Below are positions 1,088-14,424 of a DNA stretch of 64,000 nt, one piece after another; positions within the stretch are counted from its first letter, which is position 1, and each line of letters opens with the position of its first letter. A program made the position numbers and the translations under genes. Source of the stretch: a virus (taxonomy: Duplodnaviria; Heunggongvirae; Uroviricota; Caudoviricetes); the IMG/VR virus record IMGVR_UViG_2681813318_000003; one strand, 5' to 3'. The notes under the pieces are model-generated. The model made no database searches. It saw only the letters and a program-made list of their open reading frames with translations, and was not told where the DNA came from.

Positions 1088-2773
1088 TCATTTAACGCAT
1101 TTGAAAACGTATACGCTGACTGTGATCCCTGTGTCTTCAAACTCGTTGGTAAACGACTTCCCTCTGGCATAAACGTAATTATCCATCGTCATCCAGTCCA
1201 GTATTGGCGCAGTGCCCGGCAATACTGCTACAAGACGCCCGCCGACTTTCAGATGCCCCAGCGCAGCCAGCGTGTGCTCTCTATGACGACCAAGCGAGTA
1301 CGGCGGGTTCATAACGATTTTGTCGAACTGATAACCTGCGTTGTCCTCAGACCACTTTATGAAGTCGCAGCAAATCGTGTTCGTATACCCTTTTCCACGC
1401 AGGATATCAGCGAAGAGAGGTGCGATTTCTATGCAGGTAACATCTTCCAGATCGGCGTTAATATAGGCCAGAAGATCCCCACGTCCGGCTTGAGGCTCCA
1501 ACAGCTTCTCACCAGGCTTCAATTCAGTGGCTCTGGCAACGTACTCAGCAATCAAGCGTGGGGTAGGGTAGAACTGGTGTGATTTTGTATCCGGTATTAA
1601 ACCGGTAGCCACAATCGTATTTAGCGTATGGCCGATCTCATACGGGAACTGCCAGTGCTTTTTCTCCTGCACGCCGCCAATGAAGCTCAGTGTGCGCTCA
1701 AGCTCTTCCACCTGCGACTTCTGGAGAGCTGAATCAGAGAAGTACCATACGCCTTTGTCTTTGCTCAATCGCCCGTCACGAAGCGCAGTGCGAACCGGCA
1801 TGGAGATCGTCTTCTGGATTAACCCGAACTGCTTTGGTGCCCGTGTTTTTGGCGCAGTTCGGCATGGCGCGGGAATTGCAGCAGGCATACTGTAAGCCAG
1901 CACCTCATTCAACTTCCAGGCCACGTCAGGATGTATTTCAAAGTGAACGTTGCCGTTCTTGAACATCTTCACGCGCATCAGATTTCCATCGACGTTCATC
2001 CAGTCACCGGTCTGGCAGTCGTTTGCCCGATACGCAGCTGATAGCACCTCAGCAGTGCGGTTGATGGTAATAAATTCTTTGTGCGCGAAGAAATGAAGCA
2101 AGACACGCAGATCGTCGATGTAGTCCTCTTTGCGATAGTTCACGCTAACGCTGTCCCGCCAGAAATCAGAAATGCAGTCAGCGATTATCAGACGCTCGCT
2201 GAAACCGTTTGTCTTATTTGTCTTGTGCGCAGGACTCAGCGCCTTAAACAAGCCATACACGCGCTCAGAGAGATATTTGTGCCTGTCATTCAGCAAATTA
2301 AGCATCGTGGGTATGACCGTTTCTGCTTTGAACTCCGGTACACCAACGAACTCTTTAACCTTCATCTGGTAGCCGGTTCTGTCAGTTTTGATGACTTCCT
2401 GTTTGCCCTCTATAAACTGCTCGCGCCACTCATCTCGACGGGAAGCTGGCATGATCAGCAAAACGTTAGTCATATCCGTGACCTTCCTCCAGTACTCGGC
2501 CCAAATATTCTGTTTCACCCATTCCAGATCGACTTTATCCAACCAACCTCGATTTAAACGCGAGCGATCTTCATCTGGTCGATGGTTTAGTCGCAGCAGG
2601 CGATTAATCATGTTGTGGCGTTCGTCGCCATAAACGAAGTCGTGTACCTGATACATGAAGGCGATCTCTTTCTCGCACTCGGCCACGATTTCGTGGATGA
2701 CATTCATTTCCTGACGATAGTCGATAGCCGTGTTTGAGCTGGCATCGTCGATGATGGAAAGGGCTGTATTCAT
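1088..2773 (-). CDS. putative N6-adenine methyltransferase domain protein with ~350-aa N-terminal extension
   Basis: C-terminal third carries FYPTP, LEPQAGRGDLL (SAM-binding motif I-like) and NPPY (motif IV); N-terminal part has no motif I recognise. Confidence 0.55.
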   Translation of the reverse strand: MNTALSIIDDASSNTAIDYRQEMNVIHEIVAECEKEIAFMYQVHDFVYGDERHNMINRLLRLNHRPDEDRSRLNRGWLDKVDLEWVKQNIWAEYWRKVTDMTNVLLIMPASRRDEWREQFIEGKQEVIKTDRTGYQMKVKEFVGVPEFKAETVIPTMLNLLNDRHKYLSERVYGLFKALSPAHKTNKTNGFSERLIIADCISDFWRDSVSVNYRKEDYIDDLRVLLHFFAHKEFITINRTAEVLSAAYRANDCQTGDWMNVDGNLMRVKMFKNGNVHFEIHPDVAWKLNEVLAYSMPAAIPAPCRTAPKTRAPKQFGLIQKTISMPVRTALRDGRLSKDKGVWYFSDSALQKSQVEELERTLSFIGGVQEKKHWQFPYEIGHTLNTIVATGLIPDTKSHQFYPTPRLIAEYVARATELKPGEKLLEPQAGRGDLLAYINADLEDVTCIEIAPLFADILRGKGYTNTICCDFIKWSEDNAGYQFDKIVMNPPYSLGRHREHTLAALGHLKVGGRLVAVLPGTAPILDWMTMDNYVYARGKSFTNEFEDTGITVSVYVFKCVK

Positions 2774-2881
2774 AATTACACCATTAAATAATTTGTTTTC
2801 TTATTGGTGTAATTATCGCAAACTTGAAAAGGCATAAAAGCTGCATTCATAGGCGTTACAGCAGATTTAAGGCGTAAAAAT

Positions 2882-2897
2882 GGGGGCTTTCGCCCCC
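2882..2897 (-). terminator. hairpin GGGGGC-TTTC-GCCCCC followed by a U-run on the minus strand
   Basis: Perfect 6-bp GC stem; minus-strand read continues ATTTTTAC; sits between the stop of 2921..3484 and the start of 1088..2773. Confidence 0.5.
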
Positions 2898-2920
2898 TGT
2901 CGACTTGTGCGGTATTAGAA

Positions 2921-3484
2921 TTATGCGTATTGCGTTTTGTGCGGTTGCTTATTCAAGTCGTGGCGATGCGTAAGCTCCCGCATCATGTCTTCAAGCCGAC
3001 TTTTCGTATCATCAAGCTGGTCGGCCATTGCTCCCAAAAGCTGGCGAACGGCCATTGGATCGTCACTGTTTAGTGATGGCATTTTATATCCCGCTTTAGA
3101 AGACATAAGATTGATTGCAGACATCAACATCGTTAGAGAAGACTTAAGTCCGGCAATTTCACGATCTTTGCTGGCAATAATCGTCTCACTATTGTTACCG
3201 TCATGGGTTCCTTGAGTCTCGCTCACCATATCCAAAGTCGCCTGCAACTTATTAGCGCGCTCTTTTTCAGCAAGATAATGAACACCGAAATGGTGTGCCA
3301 AAGCTACAACCTGAGTTGGCTCTTCAAAGGTGGAATTAAAATTAAGTACTGTAAACAGTCTCTCAAATATAGAAACGTCTTCTGTTCCCCGAACAATGCC
3401 TAACATTTTGACAAGTTCATTAGCATCCATTTCTTCGAATAGGGCGTTTTGTTCATCAGCTATTGCTTTGCATTTCTCGCACAT
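2921..3484 (-). CDS. hypothetical protein
   Basis: 187-aa ORF; conserved leader and AAACAAGTTGTTT palindrome upstream. Confidence 0.55.
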   Translation of the reverse strand: MCEKCKAIADEQNALFEEMDANELVKMLGIVRGTEDVSIFERLFTVLNFNSTFEEPTQVVALAHHFGVHYLAEKERANKLQATLDMVSETQGTHDGNNSETIIASKDREIAGLKSSLTMLMSAINLMSSKAGYKMPSLNSDDPMAVRQLLGAMADQLDDTKSRLEDMMRELTHRHDLNKQPHKTQYA

Positions 3485-3781
3485 GTGTTTTCCTTAATGC
3501 TTAAACAAGTTGTTTTCTAATTGGATTTATTGTGATGTGGCATAAAAGGGGAGCAAGCTAAACGTAAAGGTGCAAACTCTCTATTTCGGTCAACGAAACA
3601 CAAGGGCCATTTGGCCCTTGTCATTAACACGTTGCTTTACGGACTAGCGGATAAGCGAAGTAGATCGCCAGGCCAATGAGGACGCCATCAGAAATGACAG
3701 ACATCATCTTTCCCGTAAAATCCACCAACACCGCCATCACCAGAAGAGCAATGACGGTCACAAGCCGGAATCTCTCAAGCA

Positions 3782-4207
3782 TTAGAGATAAGCATCCAGT
3801 GACAACTGAAGCGCCTGGGCTATCTTTTTCAGCGCCTGCTCTTCTTGTTCTCCAATACCGTCTTGGTCGGCAATATCAAGGCACAGACACAGAACATCGA
3901 CCGCCTCTGGAGTACCCGCAATATCAGACAGCTCACGAATAGCCTGTGCATTAGCAGAACGAGGGGACGCTTCGTAACGAGCACGGATATTGGCGCTCAT
4001 TTGGGCAATTTCACCAGCAAACGGAGAAAACGCAGGCAGAGCTGCAATTGTCTTCTCAAGAATGGCAATTTCTTTTGCGTCACATGTGCCGTCGGCATAG
4101 GAGATCATGTACGCGCCCCACACGGTGGCCTCAACCGCATCACGGTTCTCCATTTTTTTGACTTCAATAACAGCTTTACGAGTTTTCTTTTTGAAGAAAC
4201 CTAACAT
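3782..4207 (-). CDS. TerB-like domain protein
   Basis: 141 aa; residue pattern around a conserved DG resembles the tellurite-resistance TerB fold, recalled from memory. Confidence 0.45.
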   Translation of the reverse strand: MLGFFKKKTRKAVIEVKKMENRDAVEATVWGAYMISYADGTCDAKEIAILEKTIAALPAFSPFAGEIAQMSANIRARYEASPRSANAQAIRELSDIAGTPEAVDVLCLCLDIADQDGIGEQEEQALKKIAQALQLSLDAYL

Positions 4208-5138: not shown

Positions 5139-5732
5139 TTACCACTTGTTGTAAATAAAACCAATGTCTTTCTTGTGAGGCGTATCGGCTGCGGAAAAAG
5201 CTGCGATCTTCGCGAGTCGATCACATATTTCATTTTCACGATGCCCGGCGTGACCTTTAACCCACTTCCAGCGAACATTATGTCGACTTGCGGCCTCATC
5301 CAGACGTTTCCACAGATCAACATTCTTTACCGGTTTTTTATCAGAAGTCATCCATCCATTACGTTTCCACCATTTCATCCACTGTGTCATGCCGTTTTTC
5401 AGATACTGGCTATCAGAGTACAAAATAACGTTGCATGGATATTTCAAACGCTCCAGCCCGATAAGTGCGCCCATCATCTCCATGCGGTTATTGGTGGTGC
5501 TATGAAAACCATCTGAGAACTCGCGTTCCTCACCACGATACTGGAGAACGATACCGTAACCGCCCGGGCCACCCGGATTTTTAAGGCAAGAGCCATCACT
5601 AAAGATTTTCACGGTTTTGAGCTGGGGATTGAACTCTACGACAGGCGTTGTGGGATTGGTGCGGGGAGAATTTTTGTTTTTGTCTTTTTTGCGAGTTTTT
5701 GCTTGCGATCGGGCTGGTGTCTTCGTCGTCAT
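5139..5732 (-). CDS. rnhA: ribonuclease H
   Basis: RNase HI-like C-terminal region (FSDGSC...GYG..., ...VKGHAGH.ENE.CD.LA); start moved to ATG 5730-5732, preceded by AGGAG. Confidence 0.85.
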
Positions 5733-6316
5733 ATAAACTCCTGAATCAATCGCCGCGCCGATTTTTTTTCCTCGCGCGTGCGCACACGCGTGCGTGTTAA
5801 TAATTATTAAAATAAACAAATTACTTCCCAGAACAGGTTTTTATAAACCTGAACTGAACGAACGAAGTGAGTGAAGTTCACCTCGAACGAAGTGAGAGGT
5901 TGTCTTTTCAGGTAATACTCTCCCAGGGAGGTGAGTATAAAATTCCTCACCAACCTGGTCGTTTCATAACCTGAAAAGCTATGGTCTAAGTCTACTGCCA
6001 GCTTAGACTTGGGAAGTTATGGATGACAGCACCCCAGAACCGAGATCTTCCCACACTTTATGAAGGGGAGTACTGGATTCAACCTCTCGAAACACCCCAG
6101 ACTCGACAATCATAAAGTGACCCTTGTCTCTGCTCACTTTGGTTCCCCCTTCCCCGACACCTATACGGCACCGGTTCTACGCTGGTAGTGAGCTTTTTTA
6201 AACCTGACGCCAGTGACGCTTACCCCCACCCATCAGGTCGAGCCTCCAGTCTACGACTGGAAACTATCATATCTTAGCACTTACAATTCACTTTATGAAT
6301 AGTTTGTACTTATCTA

Positions 6317-6732: not shown

Positions 6733-7326
6733 CTAAGCAGCCTTCTTTGATGGTCTTTTTTTCCTGATCACATTCGCAGGATCATACCCTCCCAGACTTT
6801 TCATGACGTCCAAAGGGATCTTGCTTATAGAGTGCCCAGCGTCCTGACAGAATCCTCGAAAAACAACGAGCATACTGCCACCGGGGTTGATGTTTACTTC
6901 TACCTGACCCAAATTGACGTCAGGCTCGACAAACGCTACGCGGCCACCAGACAGAATAATCGTCTCATTCGCACACTCTGTTGCACGCTCATACCACTTT
7001 GTATCGAGGGATTGAGGAATTAGCATCACTGTTGTAACTCCGCGAGCCTGCTCACGTATAGCCGCATCAATCCAGGGGGAGATTTTGGAGTAGGGTGGAT
7101 TGAGGAAGGCAATTGTACCTGGCTGTCCCCATTCAGATTTCAAAGCATCACGCTCAACGCCTATGAAAATAGGCAGCTTTGCGTTGTCCTTGTTGCAGGC
7201 AACGTCAACATCAAATGTCACTCCAAGATAACGTTGAATGGCAGAAAACAGCCAATCAGGTGTTCTCCAGAGGTCACGAAGAGAGTTGTCGCGCTTTCGC
7301 TGTTTGATTTTTTCGGCTGCAATCAT
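6733..7326 (-). CDS. phage-type DNA N6-adenine methyltransferase (Dam-like)
   Basis: 197 aa with N-terminal WRTP and central NPPY motifs typical of the small phage Dam family. Confidence 0.75.
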   Translation of the reverse strand: MIAAEKIKQRKRDNSLRDLWRTPDWLFSAIQRYLGVTFDVDVACNKDNAKLPIFIGVERDALKSEWGQPGTIAFLNPPYSKISPWIDAAIREQARGVTTVMLIPQSLDTKWYERATECANETIILSGGRVAFVEPDVNLGQVEVNINPGGSMLVVFRGFCQDAGHSISKIPLDVMKSLGGYDPANVIRKKRPSKKAA

Positions 7327-12190: not shown

Positions 12191-12247
12191 TTATTCCTTA
12201 AGTGAGTTTACATTTATTGAGGGAACAAGGCCAGATAGATAAAAAAA

Positions 12248-12266
12248 TGGTGGCCATAGGCCACCA
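12248..12266 (-). terminator. hairpin TGGTGGCC-ATA-GGCCACCA with a flanking U-run
   Basis: Minus-strand read has the hairpin followed by TTTTTTT; downstream of the 12335 stop. Confidence 0.55.
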
Positions 12267-12334
12267 AAAACGAATAGTTGTTTCAGAAATTTAACGCGCC
12301 AACGCAATATACACAGATAGATAACTACCTACAA

Positions 12335-13204
12335 TTATTTTTTGATCATTCCGTACATTGCTGAGGCTTTAGCTTGCTCAACAAAGGAGGATAAATCGAC
12401 ATCACTATAGGTTGGAGACTTCAGAATCTTTCCATCGGAAATTCGAAAACCGATCATCTTATCGGTGCCATCAGCATGGCGAAATCCCAGGTCAGAAGAG
12501 TCGTATTTGCAGTTGGCCACAGCATGGCGACGCTCTTCGGCATCTGCAGGCCATAATTTTGTCATGTTGGACCGATGAATTTCGCCAACCAGCTCGACGA
12601 CATTGATACCGAGGAAATCAGCCAGTCGATAGGTCATCATGCACGCCACATAGATTTTGTTCATTACACGGCGCAGTTCCTGAATCAGCTCAGAATCCTT
12701 AACAGTCTTGTTCTCAAGTTTATCTGCCAGCTCTTCGAGCATACATGACGCCTCACGAGCTTCCTGAAATGGCATTGCCATATCATCGAAAACAGTGTTA
12801 CCAGGCACAAAAATTGTCTGCATAAAGCGATCAATGCTCTGTTCCTGCGTGTAATAGGTCATGCCGGTAGAAATACCACCTTTGATGGCGACCATCGTAC
12901 CAACACCAACGTATAAAAAGTCGGCCATTGCATCCAGCAGTTGCTCAATATCCCCATTCATTGCGGCTGGAATACCTTCCACTACAGCTTCTTCATGAAT
13001 CAGGCTTGCACGGAGACGAAGCAGCTCTGGTGTCGGCATAACGCGTCTCGGATGCTGGAAGAGTTCATGAAACTGATCGACCATCTTGTAAATACTTTCA
13101 GTAGCTACACCATGACCTTCATGCAACTCATATGGTTCTGGCTTAAATCCAATGAGTCGATCGGTGGCAAGTTTCAGGTGGTCAGTCAGTTTGGTAAAGT
13201 TCAT
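12335..13204 (-). CDS. hypothetical protein, possibly an all-alpha NTP pyrophosphohydrolase (MazG/HisE-like)
   Basis: Two regions with EE..E and E...D acidic patterns on predicted helices; weak. Confidence 0.4.
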   Translation of the reverse strand: MNFTKLTDHLKLATDRLIGFKPEPYELHEGHGVATESIYKMVDQFHELFQHPRRVMPTPELLRLRASLIHEEAVVEGIPAAMNGDIEQLLDAMADFLYVGVGTMVAIKGGISTGMTYYTQEQSIDRFMQTIFVPGNTVFDDMAMPFQEAREASCMLEELADKLENKTVKDSELIQELRRVMNKIYVACMMTYRLADFLGINVVELVGEIHRSNMTKLWPADAEERRHAVANCKYDSSDLGFRHADGTDKMIGFRISDGKILKSPTYSDVDLSSFVEQAKASAMYGMIKK

Positions 13205-13281
13205 GCTAGTTTTGTTCCTTCTTAATTCTTGTGATCCATTGTGGCCCAGCGTTGCCAGGCCACATAATGCTTTGTATCGGT

Positions 13282-14424
13282 TTACAGGTCTGCAAACTGG
13301 CTTAGAGAAGCCTTATCCACGGTAGAATCGATCTGACCTACCAGATATGTGCTTTGCTCTGCCTCTTGTGGTGCAATTTGCAGTGTGTCGGTTAACAACC
13401 ACTTGTTCATCCAGACCAGCGGATCTGTGGTAACTTCTGGAAATAAAGCCTTCAGGCCAAGACGATTCATAGCCAGATTGGTGCGGTATTTTACATAGGT
13501 CTTCAGAATATCCGCGTTTAAACCAATCATCGAACCGTCTTTGAAGAGATAGTCTGCCCAGTTCATTTCTTGTTCGGCGACTGATTTCATGGTGTCGTAA
13601 ATGACGTTTTCTTCATCAGCAGCAATCTCTTTCCACAATAAACCTTCGCGACCGGTACGCATGAAGCGGATCATGCGTTCAGTTCCTTCGCAATGCAGAG
13701 CTTCATCACGGGCAATAAAGCGCATAATTTTGGTGTTGCCCTCAAGCAACTTCCGTTCGCCAAAGGCAAACGTACATGCAAAACTTACATAGAAACGGAT
13801 CGCCTCAAGCGCATTAATGGACACCAACGTGCGGAAAAGCTGACGGTGCAAAGGGTATGGCTCCCAGCCATATTCATTTACGTACAGACGTTCAAACTCT
13901 TTCTCACCTAACGACTGGCGCTCGCAGGTCATCCCATAAAGCCTGTCATATTCAGCAGAGATACTGATCGCTCGGTTGATGATTTCTTCATCCGTAACAA
14001 TACCGTTAAAAACAATGCTCGGATCGTCCACCATGCCACGAATAATGTGGGTGTAGCTGCGGCTATGGATAGTCTCAGAGAAAGACCATGTTTCAACCCA
14101 CGTTTCCAGTTCAGGAATAGAGATAAGCGGCAGCAGCGTTGCATTTGGGCTACGTCCCTGAACTGAATCGAGTAACGTTTGATAACGGAGATTGCTCAGA
14201 AAAATGTGACGTTCGTGGTCCCGCAGCTTCGTGTTGAAGTCGATACGATCGCTCGAAATATCAACTTCTTCCGGCCGCCAGAAGAAAGACAATTGACGTT
14301 CAATCAACTTTTCAAAATCACGGTATTTTTGCTGATCGTAACGTGCCACGTTGACAGATTGTCCGAGGAACATAGGCTCTTTGGTTGCATCATTAGCACC
14401 CAAACGGAACGTTGAATATGACAT
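13282..14424 (-). CDS. nrdB: ribonucleotide reductase class Ia beta subunit
   Basis: Long stretches match enterobacterial NrdB as I recall it (for example [37 protein letters not shown]). Confidence 0.95.

Follow-up and report, generated by a model that had tools for sequence, protein, structure and literature searches.

A stretch of DNA of 64,000 nucleotides (nt) from the IMG/VR virus record IMGVR_UViG_2681813318_000003, referred to here as the window, carries a gene whose product of 561 amino acids (aa) joins an N-terminal DUF4942 (YdiA) module to a minimal S-adenosylmethionine (SAM)-dependent methylase core. With slightly better than even confidence, we regard this protein as an orphan N6-adenine DNA methylase that protects its own element and engages its substrate from the N-terminal side. 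The protein has a methylase fold with intact catalytic and SAM-binding motifs, its fused architecture extends throughout the family, it is an orphan, and it resides on a mobile element. We infer that its substrate is DNA, that its chemistry is N6-adenine methylation, that DUF4942 engages the DNA and that the benefit to the element is protection from restriction.

The window is an SSU5/pHCM2-type phage-plasmid of Escherichia coli, because both the gene identities and the gene order match plasmid pEA11_2 and Salmonella phage SSU5. The gene shares 99.6% nucleotide identity with its counterpart on pEA11_2 (such Escherichia plasmids are 110 kb in size and non-mobilizable), is 98-99% identical to the "Escherichia phage" records CMS-2020a and Cyrano and shares 89.9% nucleotide identity with SSU5_095 of phage SSU5. 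Gene order and sizes around the gene agree with those annotated on pEA11_2, namely hypothetical protein, DUF4942 protein, hypothetical protein, DUF3927, TerB, RNase HI, phage Dam-type methylase, exonuclease, dihydrofolate reductase and thymidylate synthase. The features of the gene, in window coordinates, are as follows.

1088..2773, minus strand: complete gene, homologue of SSU5_095, encoding the DUF4942(YdiA)-methylase fusion (561 aa plus stop codon; from the listing of open reading frames)
2534..2773, minus strand: acidic, poorly conserved N-terminal helices, aa 1-80 (AlphaFold helices at 19-47 and 50-62)
1859..2533, minus strand: conserved DUF4942/YdiA core, aa 81-305, an alpha/beta fold without a solved relative
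2342..2410, minus strand: beta-hairpin insertion of 23 residues, aa 122-144 (gap in alignment A4, described below; model strands at 124-130 and 136-142)
1739..1858, minus strand: basic, poorly conserved linker, aa 306-345 (from charge and identity)
1589..1738, minus strand: small alpha/beta domain before the methylase core, aa 346-395 (from secondary structure; invariant G366 in 'GGV')
1091..1588, minus strand: minimal class I SAM-dependent methylase core, aa 396-561 (from motifs, conservation, and profile and structure matches)
1559-1573, minus strand: motif X, FYPTP, aa 401-405
1469-1501, minus strand: motif I, LEPQAGRGDLL, aa 425-435
1298-1309, minus strand: motif IV, NPPY, aa 489-492

The gene and its methylase core

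An ATG-to-stop open reading frame (ORF) lies exactly at 1088..2773 on the minus strand. It is a real gene, because the identical protein is present in public collections, 364 strong relatives exist and near-identical DNA occurs in many records (562 plasmid records and 11 phage records). The relatives are those cluster representatives, among 1.84 billion compared exhaustively with phmmer, that reach E<1e-30; of the 150 best listed, almost all are 500-600 aa long and aligned over their whole length, and the cluster of the protein at 90% identity contains 1,384 sequences. The gene is found in 251 of 5,426 complete E. coli genomes, nearly always on plasmids. It is not a new gene: the sequence and its automatic annotation ("DUF4942 domain-containing protein" in NCBI, UniRef and ENA) are already public. 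An earlier note, made from the letters of this DNA, had described the ORF, the three motifs listed above and a C-terminal methylase placed behind a large N-terminal region. The ORF and motifs are all present at those positions and the layout was correctly drawn, with a non-catalytic part of ~395 aa rather than the ~350 aa given there.

The core follows the gamma-class linear motif order, i.e. motif X (TP helix), motif I (FxGxG-like) and motif IV (NPPY/F), with no inserted domain, and the three motifs are kept across 67 sequences. The SAM-binding and catalytic residues conserved family-wide are E426, P427, G430, G432, E449, D470, F471 and N489-P491. Because the family has kept all the residues that SAM binding and catalysis would call for, the core is very probably active as a methylase. 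The full-length AlphaFold2 model, built on the 67-sequence alignment, has a mean pLDDT (predicted local distance difference test score) of 89.5 and a pTM (predicted template modelling score) of 0.83. The earlier note would have counted the absence of a methyltransferase fold from a structure prediction against its reading; a class I Rossmann-type SAM-methylase fold is present in the model and was recognized by Foldseek. Foldseek matches of the full model to HsdM (StySJI and EcoKI), M.TaqI, M.BseCI and CamA reach E values of ~1e-7 to 1e-5. The alignments span only ~170-220 residues, corresponding to the methylase part, and TrmN and many RNA methylases are matched as well.

Profile comparisons placed the core in the same neighbourhood. 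The best match of the family profile in the PDB is M.TaqI (E=5.8e-6), followed by KsgA/DIMT1, Erm, RsmC, HsdM and HemK. With hhalign, aa 390-524 aligned to aa 81-230 of P1 DarB (probability 96%, E=4e-9), with the TP motif and motifs I and IV in register. The whole protein matches PHROG 6263 (phrog_6263), 'DNA methyltransferase', at E=3e-299; from aa 328 onward it also matches phrog_9133, a phage family of 1,259 positions, at E=8e-50, and the core alone (aa ~396-520) matches PHROG profiles of 1,259-3,925 positions. Among the PADLOC models, the core matches mad2 of the MADS system (E=1.2e-15), models of Type II methylases and, at E=0.0012, a Type IIG model. These matches indicate that the core belongs to the DNA adenine methylase lineage and is a divergent, shortened domain of the N6_Mtase type.

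What the core lacks is a means of target recognition. The chain stops 69 residues after NPPY, and the model assigns these residues to the seven-stranded Rossmann fold, as its final helix and three of its strands; the statement of the earlier note that no target-recognition domain follows NPPY was therefore right. In gamma-class enzymes, by definition, a recognition domain follows the catalytic domain toward the C-terminus. The protein has neither this domain in the model nor, by neighbour clustering, a separate specificity subunit gene, and it thus falls outside the gamma class in architecture. Iyer et al. 2017 (PMC5512222) describe this lineage, EcoKI/TaqI-like gamma-class adenine methylases with a TP-capped helix and an NPP(Y/F) loop, in the polyvalent proteins that phages and conjugative elements encode.

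The N-terminal DUF4942/YdiA region

The earlier note had recognized no motif in the N-terminal part, which does not hold in a domain profile search: Pfam DUF4942 (PF13708) covers aa 140-295 with 74 bits against a cut-off of 25 (E=1.7e-20). By its profile matches, the protein can be regarded as a bona fide member of both Pfam DUF4942 and PHROG 6263. A separate AlphaFold2 model of aa 1-395 gave a pLDDT of 88.1. The DUF4942 core contains two conserved motifs, RRxEW (aa 112-116) and LSxxHxTN (aa 179-186), and its invariant residues are W95, W116, T156, S180, T185, N186, H277 and N289. Alignment A4 comprises the window protein and five others, from IncHI2, IncK and IncL/M plasmids and from a Pseudomonas and a Marinomonas phage; the beta-hairpin at aa 122-144 is missing in all five. 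A nuclease of the Type IIG kind was also considered for the N-terminal part and rejected, there being no conserved acidic/lysine catalytic pattern and no nuclease fold.

The regions differ in charge and conservation. The helices of aa 1-80 have a median net charge of -5 across the family, and the linker (aa 306-345) has a net charge of +7 and an isoelectric point (pI) of 11.1, with a family median of +4. Mean pairwise identity among distant family members is 47% in the DUF4942 core (aa 145-305), 43% in the methylase core, 29% in the domain before the core, 21% in the basic linker and 20% in the N-terminal helices. Among the parts of a DNA methylase, classical recognition domains vary most. DUF4942 appears to be unlike a diversifying specificity domain, because its conservation matches that of the catalytic core.

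Distribution of the fusion and its gene surroundings

A locus scan with the N-terminal alignment as query and one genome per species yielded 80 loci, in Gamma-, Beta- and Alphaproteobacteria and a few other metagenome-assembled genomes (MAGs). In 78 of the 80, the ORF continues into NPP[YF] ~70 aa from its end. The fusion, which the earlier note had treated as something unusual, is thus the normal architecture of the family. Homologues in Pseudomonas and Marinomonas phages have the same DUF4942-plus-methylase layout under annotations such as "RE endonuclease", "Lar family" and "methylase", as does a 563-aa protein of IncHI2 plasmids, and a scan of viral contigs for other fusions returned almost only close relatives.

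All-against-all clustering of the ORFs within 3.5 kb revealed no conserved partner gene, the commonest neighbour occurring in seven loci, and none of the neighbours in the window matched a PADLOC defence system. Because no gene partner is conserved, the gene is best classed, on these comparisons, as an orphan methylase that phages, prophages and IncHI2 plasmids carry. The early regions of lambdoid prophages hold two distant homologues, which adjoin cI/Cro-type repressors, replication genes and other DNA methylases; such an early region is the typical setting of phage orphan methylases.

In several prophages, the DUF4942-methylase gene was also seen directly before or near other orphan DNA methylase genes (beta-class N6_N4_Mtase and C5 DNA_methylase). 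In these 'methylase islands' of the early region, stop and start codons sometimes overlap. The island loci are as follows.

L003:11749-12936: prophage methylase-island locus
L005:6948-8207 and 12221-14320: prophage methylase-island loci
L014:7665-8828: prophage methylase-island locus

One further locus, L007 (JAEWTL010000044.1), is a contig of a 'Bacillota bacterium' MAG whose encoded protein is 96% identical to the product of the enterobacterial phage-plasmid gene. This assignment is most likely an artefact of binning or contamination rather than a sign of the true host.

Stand-alone relatives on plasmids

A tblastn search with aa 85-310 matched at least 5,000 plasmid records, 3,901 of which are conjugative. 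On IncK and IncL/M plasmids, the match is a stand-alone protein of 282-286 aa without a methylase domain, which scores 172 bits on Pfam DUF4942, aligns to aa 1-303 and ends where the basic linker begins. Two examples are given below.

L089:6722-7570: stand-alone DUF4942/YdiA of IncK plasmid pO111-CRL-115 (282 aa)
L091:4737-5597: stand-alone DUF4942/YdiA of an IncL/M plasmid (286 aa)

The residues invariant in A4, stand-alone forms included, are W95, T102, R113, E115, W116, T156, S180, T185, N186, H277 and N289; H183 and W258 are not kept in the stand-alone forms, and D262 is replaced by Glu. The stand-alone genes sit near ArdA and DUF1380 and, in IncL/M, also near ssb. The IncK gene lies ~700 bp from the nikA(mobA)/relaxase-oriT region and, because of this position, should be among the first to enter a recipient. 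Two families annotated 'Uncharacterized; DUF4942; YdiA', with 2,171 and 551 members, are enriched in leading regions (Samuel et al. 2024, PMC11541004, supplementary file 3). We also considered whether stand-alone YdiA is paired with the same methylase as a split-off gene and rejected this, the 'DNA methylase' of the IncK leading region being an unrelated beta-class N6_N4 enzyme.

Proposed function and alternative explanations

In the favoured explanation, an orphan DNA methylase acting for its own element, aa 396-561 would be a stripped-down EcoKI/TaqI/DarB-type gamma-class domain without a recognition domain of its own, and the DUF4942/YdiA module (aa 1-305), the basic linker (306-345) and the small pre-core domain (346-395) would engage the substrate. 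The enzyme would methylate the DNA of the element during replication or after entry, and the methylated DNA would escape host restriction enzymes that recognize adenine-containing sites. The module is proposed to engage the substrate because the core has no other means of holding it, the fusion has been kept over large distances and the model forms one confident assembly. Since DUF4942 is as conserved as the catalytic core family-wide, specificity is probably relaxed, short, structure-dependent or shared by the whole family, and not diversified as in classical Type II enzymes. Among the options offered by the earlier note, a self-protecting, anti-restriction orphan DNA methylase fits best, because the core matches M.TaqI, DarB and Type II/MADS models, no partner gene accompanies it and relatives lie in phage early regions; the RNA or protein methylase that it had also allowed for has lost ground, as DNA enzymes match better.

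Several findings weigh against this explanation. With the single sequence, the match to Pfam N6_Mtase (PF02384) reaches 13.4 bits, under the gathering cut-off of 20.4, and all methylase matches in Pfam and NCBIfam remain below threshold. The RNA methylases DIMT1/KsgA and Erm also appear in the PDB profile search, ~30-100 times worse than TaqI. The DUF4942 module shows no similarity to any known recognition domain and is not basic overall (aa 1-305: net charge -5, pI 6.1). It must moreover have a function that is independent of the methylase domain, because it also exists as a stand-alone protein. Finally, a literature search covering DUF4942, YdiA and the SSU5 and pHCM2 methylases found no functional study, nor any paper characterizing a member of the DUF4942-methylase family.

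The independent existence of the module is the basis of the main rival, which we consider rather unlikely: DUF4942/YdiA would be an autonomous effector that blocks a restriction enzyme or host factor, or coats DNA, and does not serve the methylase, so that the fusion would join two independent counter-defence activities, as in polyvalent proteins. It is favoured by the stand-alone forms, which keep most of the invariant residues, lie in leading regions near ArdA, and also beside oriT/nikA (IncK) or near ssb (IncL/M), and belong to a domain so abundant on conjugative plasmids, with families enriched in their leading regions (PMC11541004). The conservation of the module, similar to that of the core and unlike that of a specificity domain, and the occurrence of the methylase core in giant polyvalent proteins point the same way. 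However, the core would then be left with no alternative candidate for substrate recognition, and the retention of the fusion in 78 of 80 loci across distant taxa, together with the packing of both halves into one confident model (pTM 0.83), suggests that they work jointly. In addition, the module, at pI 6.1, lacks the strong acidity of the DNA mimics ArdA and Ocr, and no anti-restriction activity of YdiA was found in the literature. A reading that combines both ideas is tentative, and we hold it to be possible though doubtful: DUF4942/YdiA may be a new-fold, autonomous counter-defence or DNA-engaging module that, when fused, directs sequence-relaxed or structure-specific adenine methylation of incoming or replicating mobile DNA. 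Stand-alone YdiA would then act in the first minutes after plasmid entry, as its place among the genes closest to oriT in IncK suggests, and the fused form might target, e.g. single-strand DNA or replication intermediates.

It is improbable that the N-terminal module binds rRNA, tRNA or a translation factor and that the core, like KsgA, Erm, RsmC or HemK/PrmC, methylates an RNA adenine or a glutamine. A highly conserved non-catalytic module would suit a conserved target, and matches to such enzymes do exist: weak ones to Erm, KsgA and RsmA models (NCBIfam E values of 0.006-0.1; Pfam RrnaAD 0.087), PDB profile matches to DIMT1 (1.8e-4), ErmAM (4.8e-4), RsmC, METTL5 and HemK (0.12), and many tRNA and rRNA methylases scoring near the DNA enzymes in Foldseek. 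Nevertheless, in each library the top matches were DNA adenine methylases, the motif X helix with FYPTP is a typical trait of the EcoKI/TaqI/DarB lineage, the genomic neighbours are DNA methylases and replication genes, and NCBIfam scores for RNA methylases fall far under their cut-offs (e.g. 18.8 vs 243 bits). A role in restriction-modification or defence, with an N-terminal nuclease as in Type IIG/IIL enzymes or with the protein as the methylating member of a multi-gene system like MADS, has very little probability. The PADLOC matches to mad2 and Type IIG and the annotation of one phage homologue as 'RE endonuclease' speak for it, and it is essentially excluded by the lack of a partner gene, of a nuclease motif or fold, and by carriage on phages and plasmids.

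The matter is of some consequence because orphan methylases rank among the chief means that phages and plasmids have of evading restriction, and SSU5-like phage-plasmids are common in clinical Enterobacteriaceae. Such elements spread resistance genes (PMC9600943). An orphan phage methylase is ordinary to the specialist; its link to the abundant YdiA of leading regions provides a concrete experimental entry point, and the methylation target and the need for DUF4942, once worked out, would offer a first way into the function of YdiA. If the combined reading above holds, the fusion in the window would be a 'Rosetta stone' for one of the largest uncharacterized gene families of leading regions; if methylation is sequence-relaxed, the protein may be a compact new tool enzyme.

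Upstream region and other features of the window

Two features were found upstream of the gene.

2772..2820, minus strand: possible control region (from sequence and RNA fold; partly conserved)
2882..2897, minus strand: terminator-like GC hairpin, GGGGGCGAAAGCCCCC, with a T run, in the interval separating the methylase gene from its upstream neighbour (from a consensus scan)

Within the first, TGcGATAAT (2812-2820, minus strand) has the look of an extended -10 element. ATAATTACACCA (2805-2816) and TGGTGTAATTAT (2772-2783) form a perfect inverted repeat of 12 bp, whose right arm covers the ribosome-binding-like GGTG and the start codon ATG up to its second base. Folded as an RNA hairpin, the repeat has an energy of -13.9 kcal/mol (z=-2.5), and it may act as an operator or as a hairpin at the level of translation. 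In SSU5 and Kluyvera, the region 2772..2820 is only partly conserved, and the hairpin at 2882..2897 is conserved. The position of this intrinsic-terminator-like hairpin between the two genes suggests that the methylase gene has its own promoter.

A second orphan methylase gene lies 4 kb away at 6733-7326 (minus strand) and encodes a 197-aa phage Dam-type N6-adenine methylase (Pfam PF05869, E=1.7e-37; PADLOC label 'orphan methyltransferase'). Judged from their sequences, the element thus appears to carry at least two unrelated adenine methylases. Other neighbours are a TerB-domain protein at 3782-4207 (minus strand; E=2.4e-7) and an RNase HI at 5139-5819 (minus strand) with an N-terminal extension of ~65 aa, for which the start of the listed ORF is TTG.

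The gene is also matched over 32 of 32 nt by a spacer in a chromosomal type I-E CRISPR (clustered regularly interspaced short palindromic repeats) array of E. coli AST85 (NZ_AP043644.1), located beside cas2 (L093:1501-1532 of the AST85 stretch). The array adjoins cas1e, cas2e and iap, and there are eight other chromosomal matches besides. The protospacer occupies 2067-2098 of the window and is preceded by ATG at 2064-2066, which we take to be an interference-proficient I-E protospacer adjacent motif (PAM). The spacer represents natural CRISPR immunity against SSU5-like phage-plasmids.

Comparison with known systems

The closest relatives are those of the SSU5_095/PHROG 6263 family, which is the same gene in length, architecture and phage-plasmid position; no difference was seen, and the annotation of that family is automatic only. 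The stand-alone YdiA proteins are homologous to aa 1-303, share invariant residues and lie in anti-restriction gene surroundings, but they consist of ~285 aa without a methylase and are encoded in a leading region or island, whereas the window protein is fused to its methylase and carried by a non-conjugative phage-plasmid.

With M.TaqI and EcoKI HsdM, the window protein shares the motif order X-I-IV, the TP helix before motif I, the NPPY loop and the Rossmann fold. M.TaqI, however, has a C-terminal recognition domain of ~180 aa, which the window protein lacks, and EcoKI HsdM depends on a separate HsdS subunit, whereas the window protein has no conserved neighbour; its extra mass is N-terminal and of unrelated fold. 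P1 DarB and the methylase domains of polyvalent proteins have a homologous core, an anti-restriction setting on mobile elements and, likewise, no classical recognition domain. P1 DarB is a virion-packaged protein of 2,255 aa with a C-terminal superfamily 2 (SF2) helicase and an N-terminal LPD36 with a GxGU motif (Iyer et al. 2017, PMC5512222). The window protein, in contrast, has no helicase match, ends at aa 561 and has DUF4942 instead; its conserved pre-core motif reads 'GGV' (G366) where LPD36 has GxGU. N-terminal DUF4942, being neither a C-terminal recognition domain nor a helicase, would thus represent a third way to equip a TaqI/DarB-type core.

M.EcoGIX and M.BceJIII (Fomenkov et al. 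2020, PMC7736820) are ParB-methylase fusions encoded in the leading regions of plasmids. The likeness to them is in concept only: each is an orphan adenine methylase that a mobile element carries and that has a non-catalytic, nucleic-acid-related domain at its N-terminus. Enzymes of the M.EcoGIX type consist of a ParB-like domain and a beta-class N6_N4 methylase, neither of which was found by Pfam in the window protein, and by analogy they offer a lead toward a relaxed or single-strand-directed action. As an enzyme type, the DUF4942-methylase has not yet been described, and its architecture differs from those of all characterized relatives. In mechanism, its nearest counterparts are the orphan methylases with which phages and plasmids counter restriction, and its core belongs by homology to the EcoKI/TaqI/DarB gamma-class lineage.

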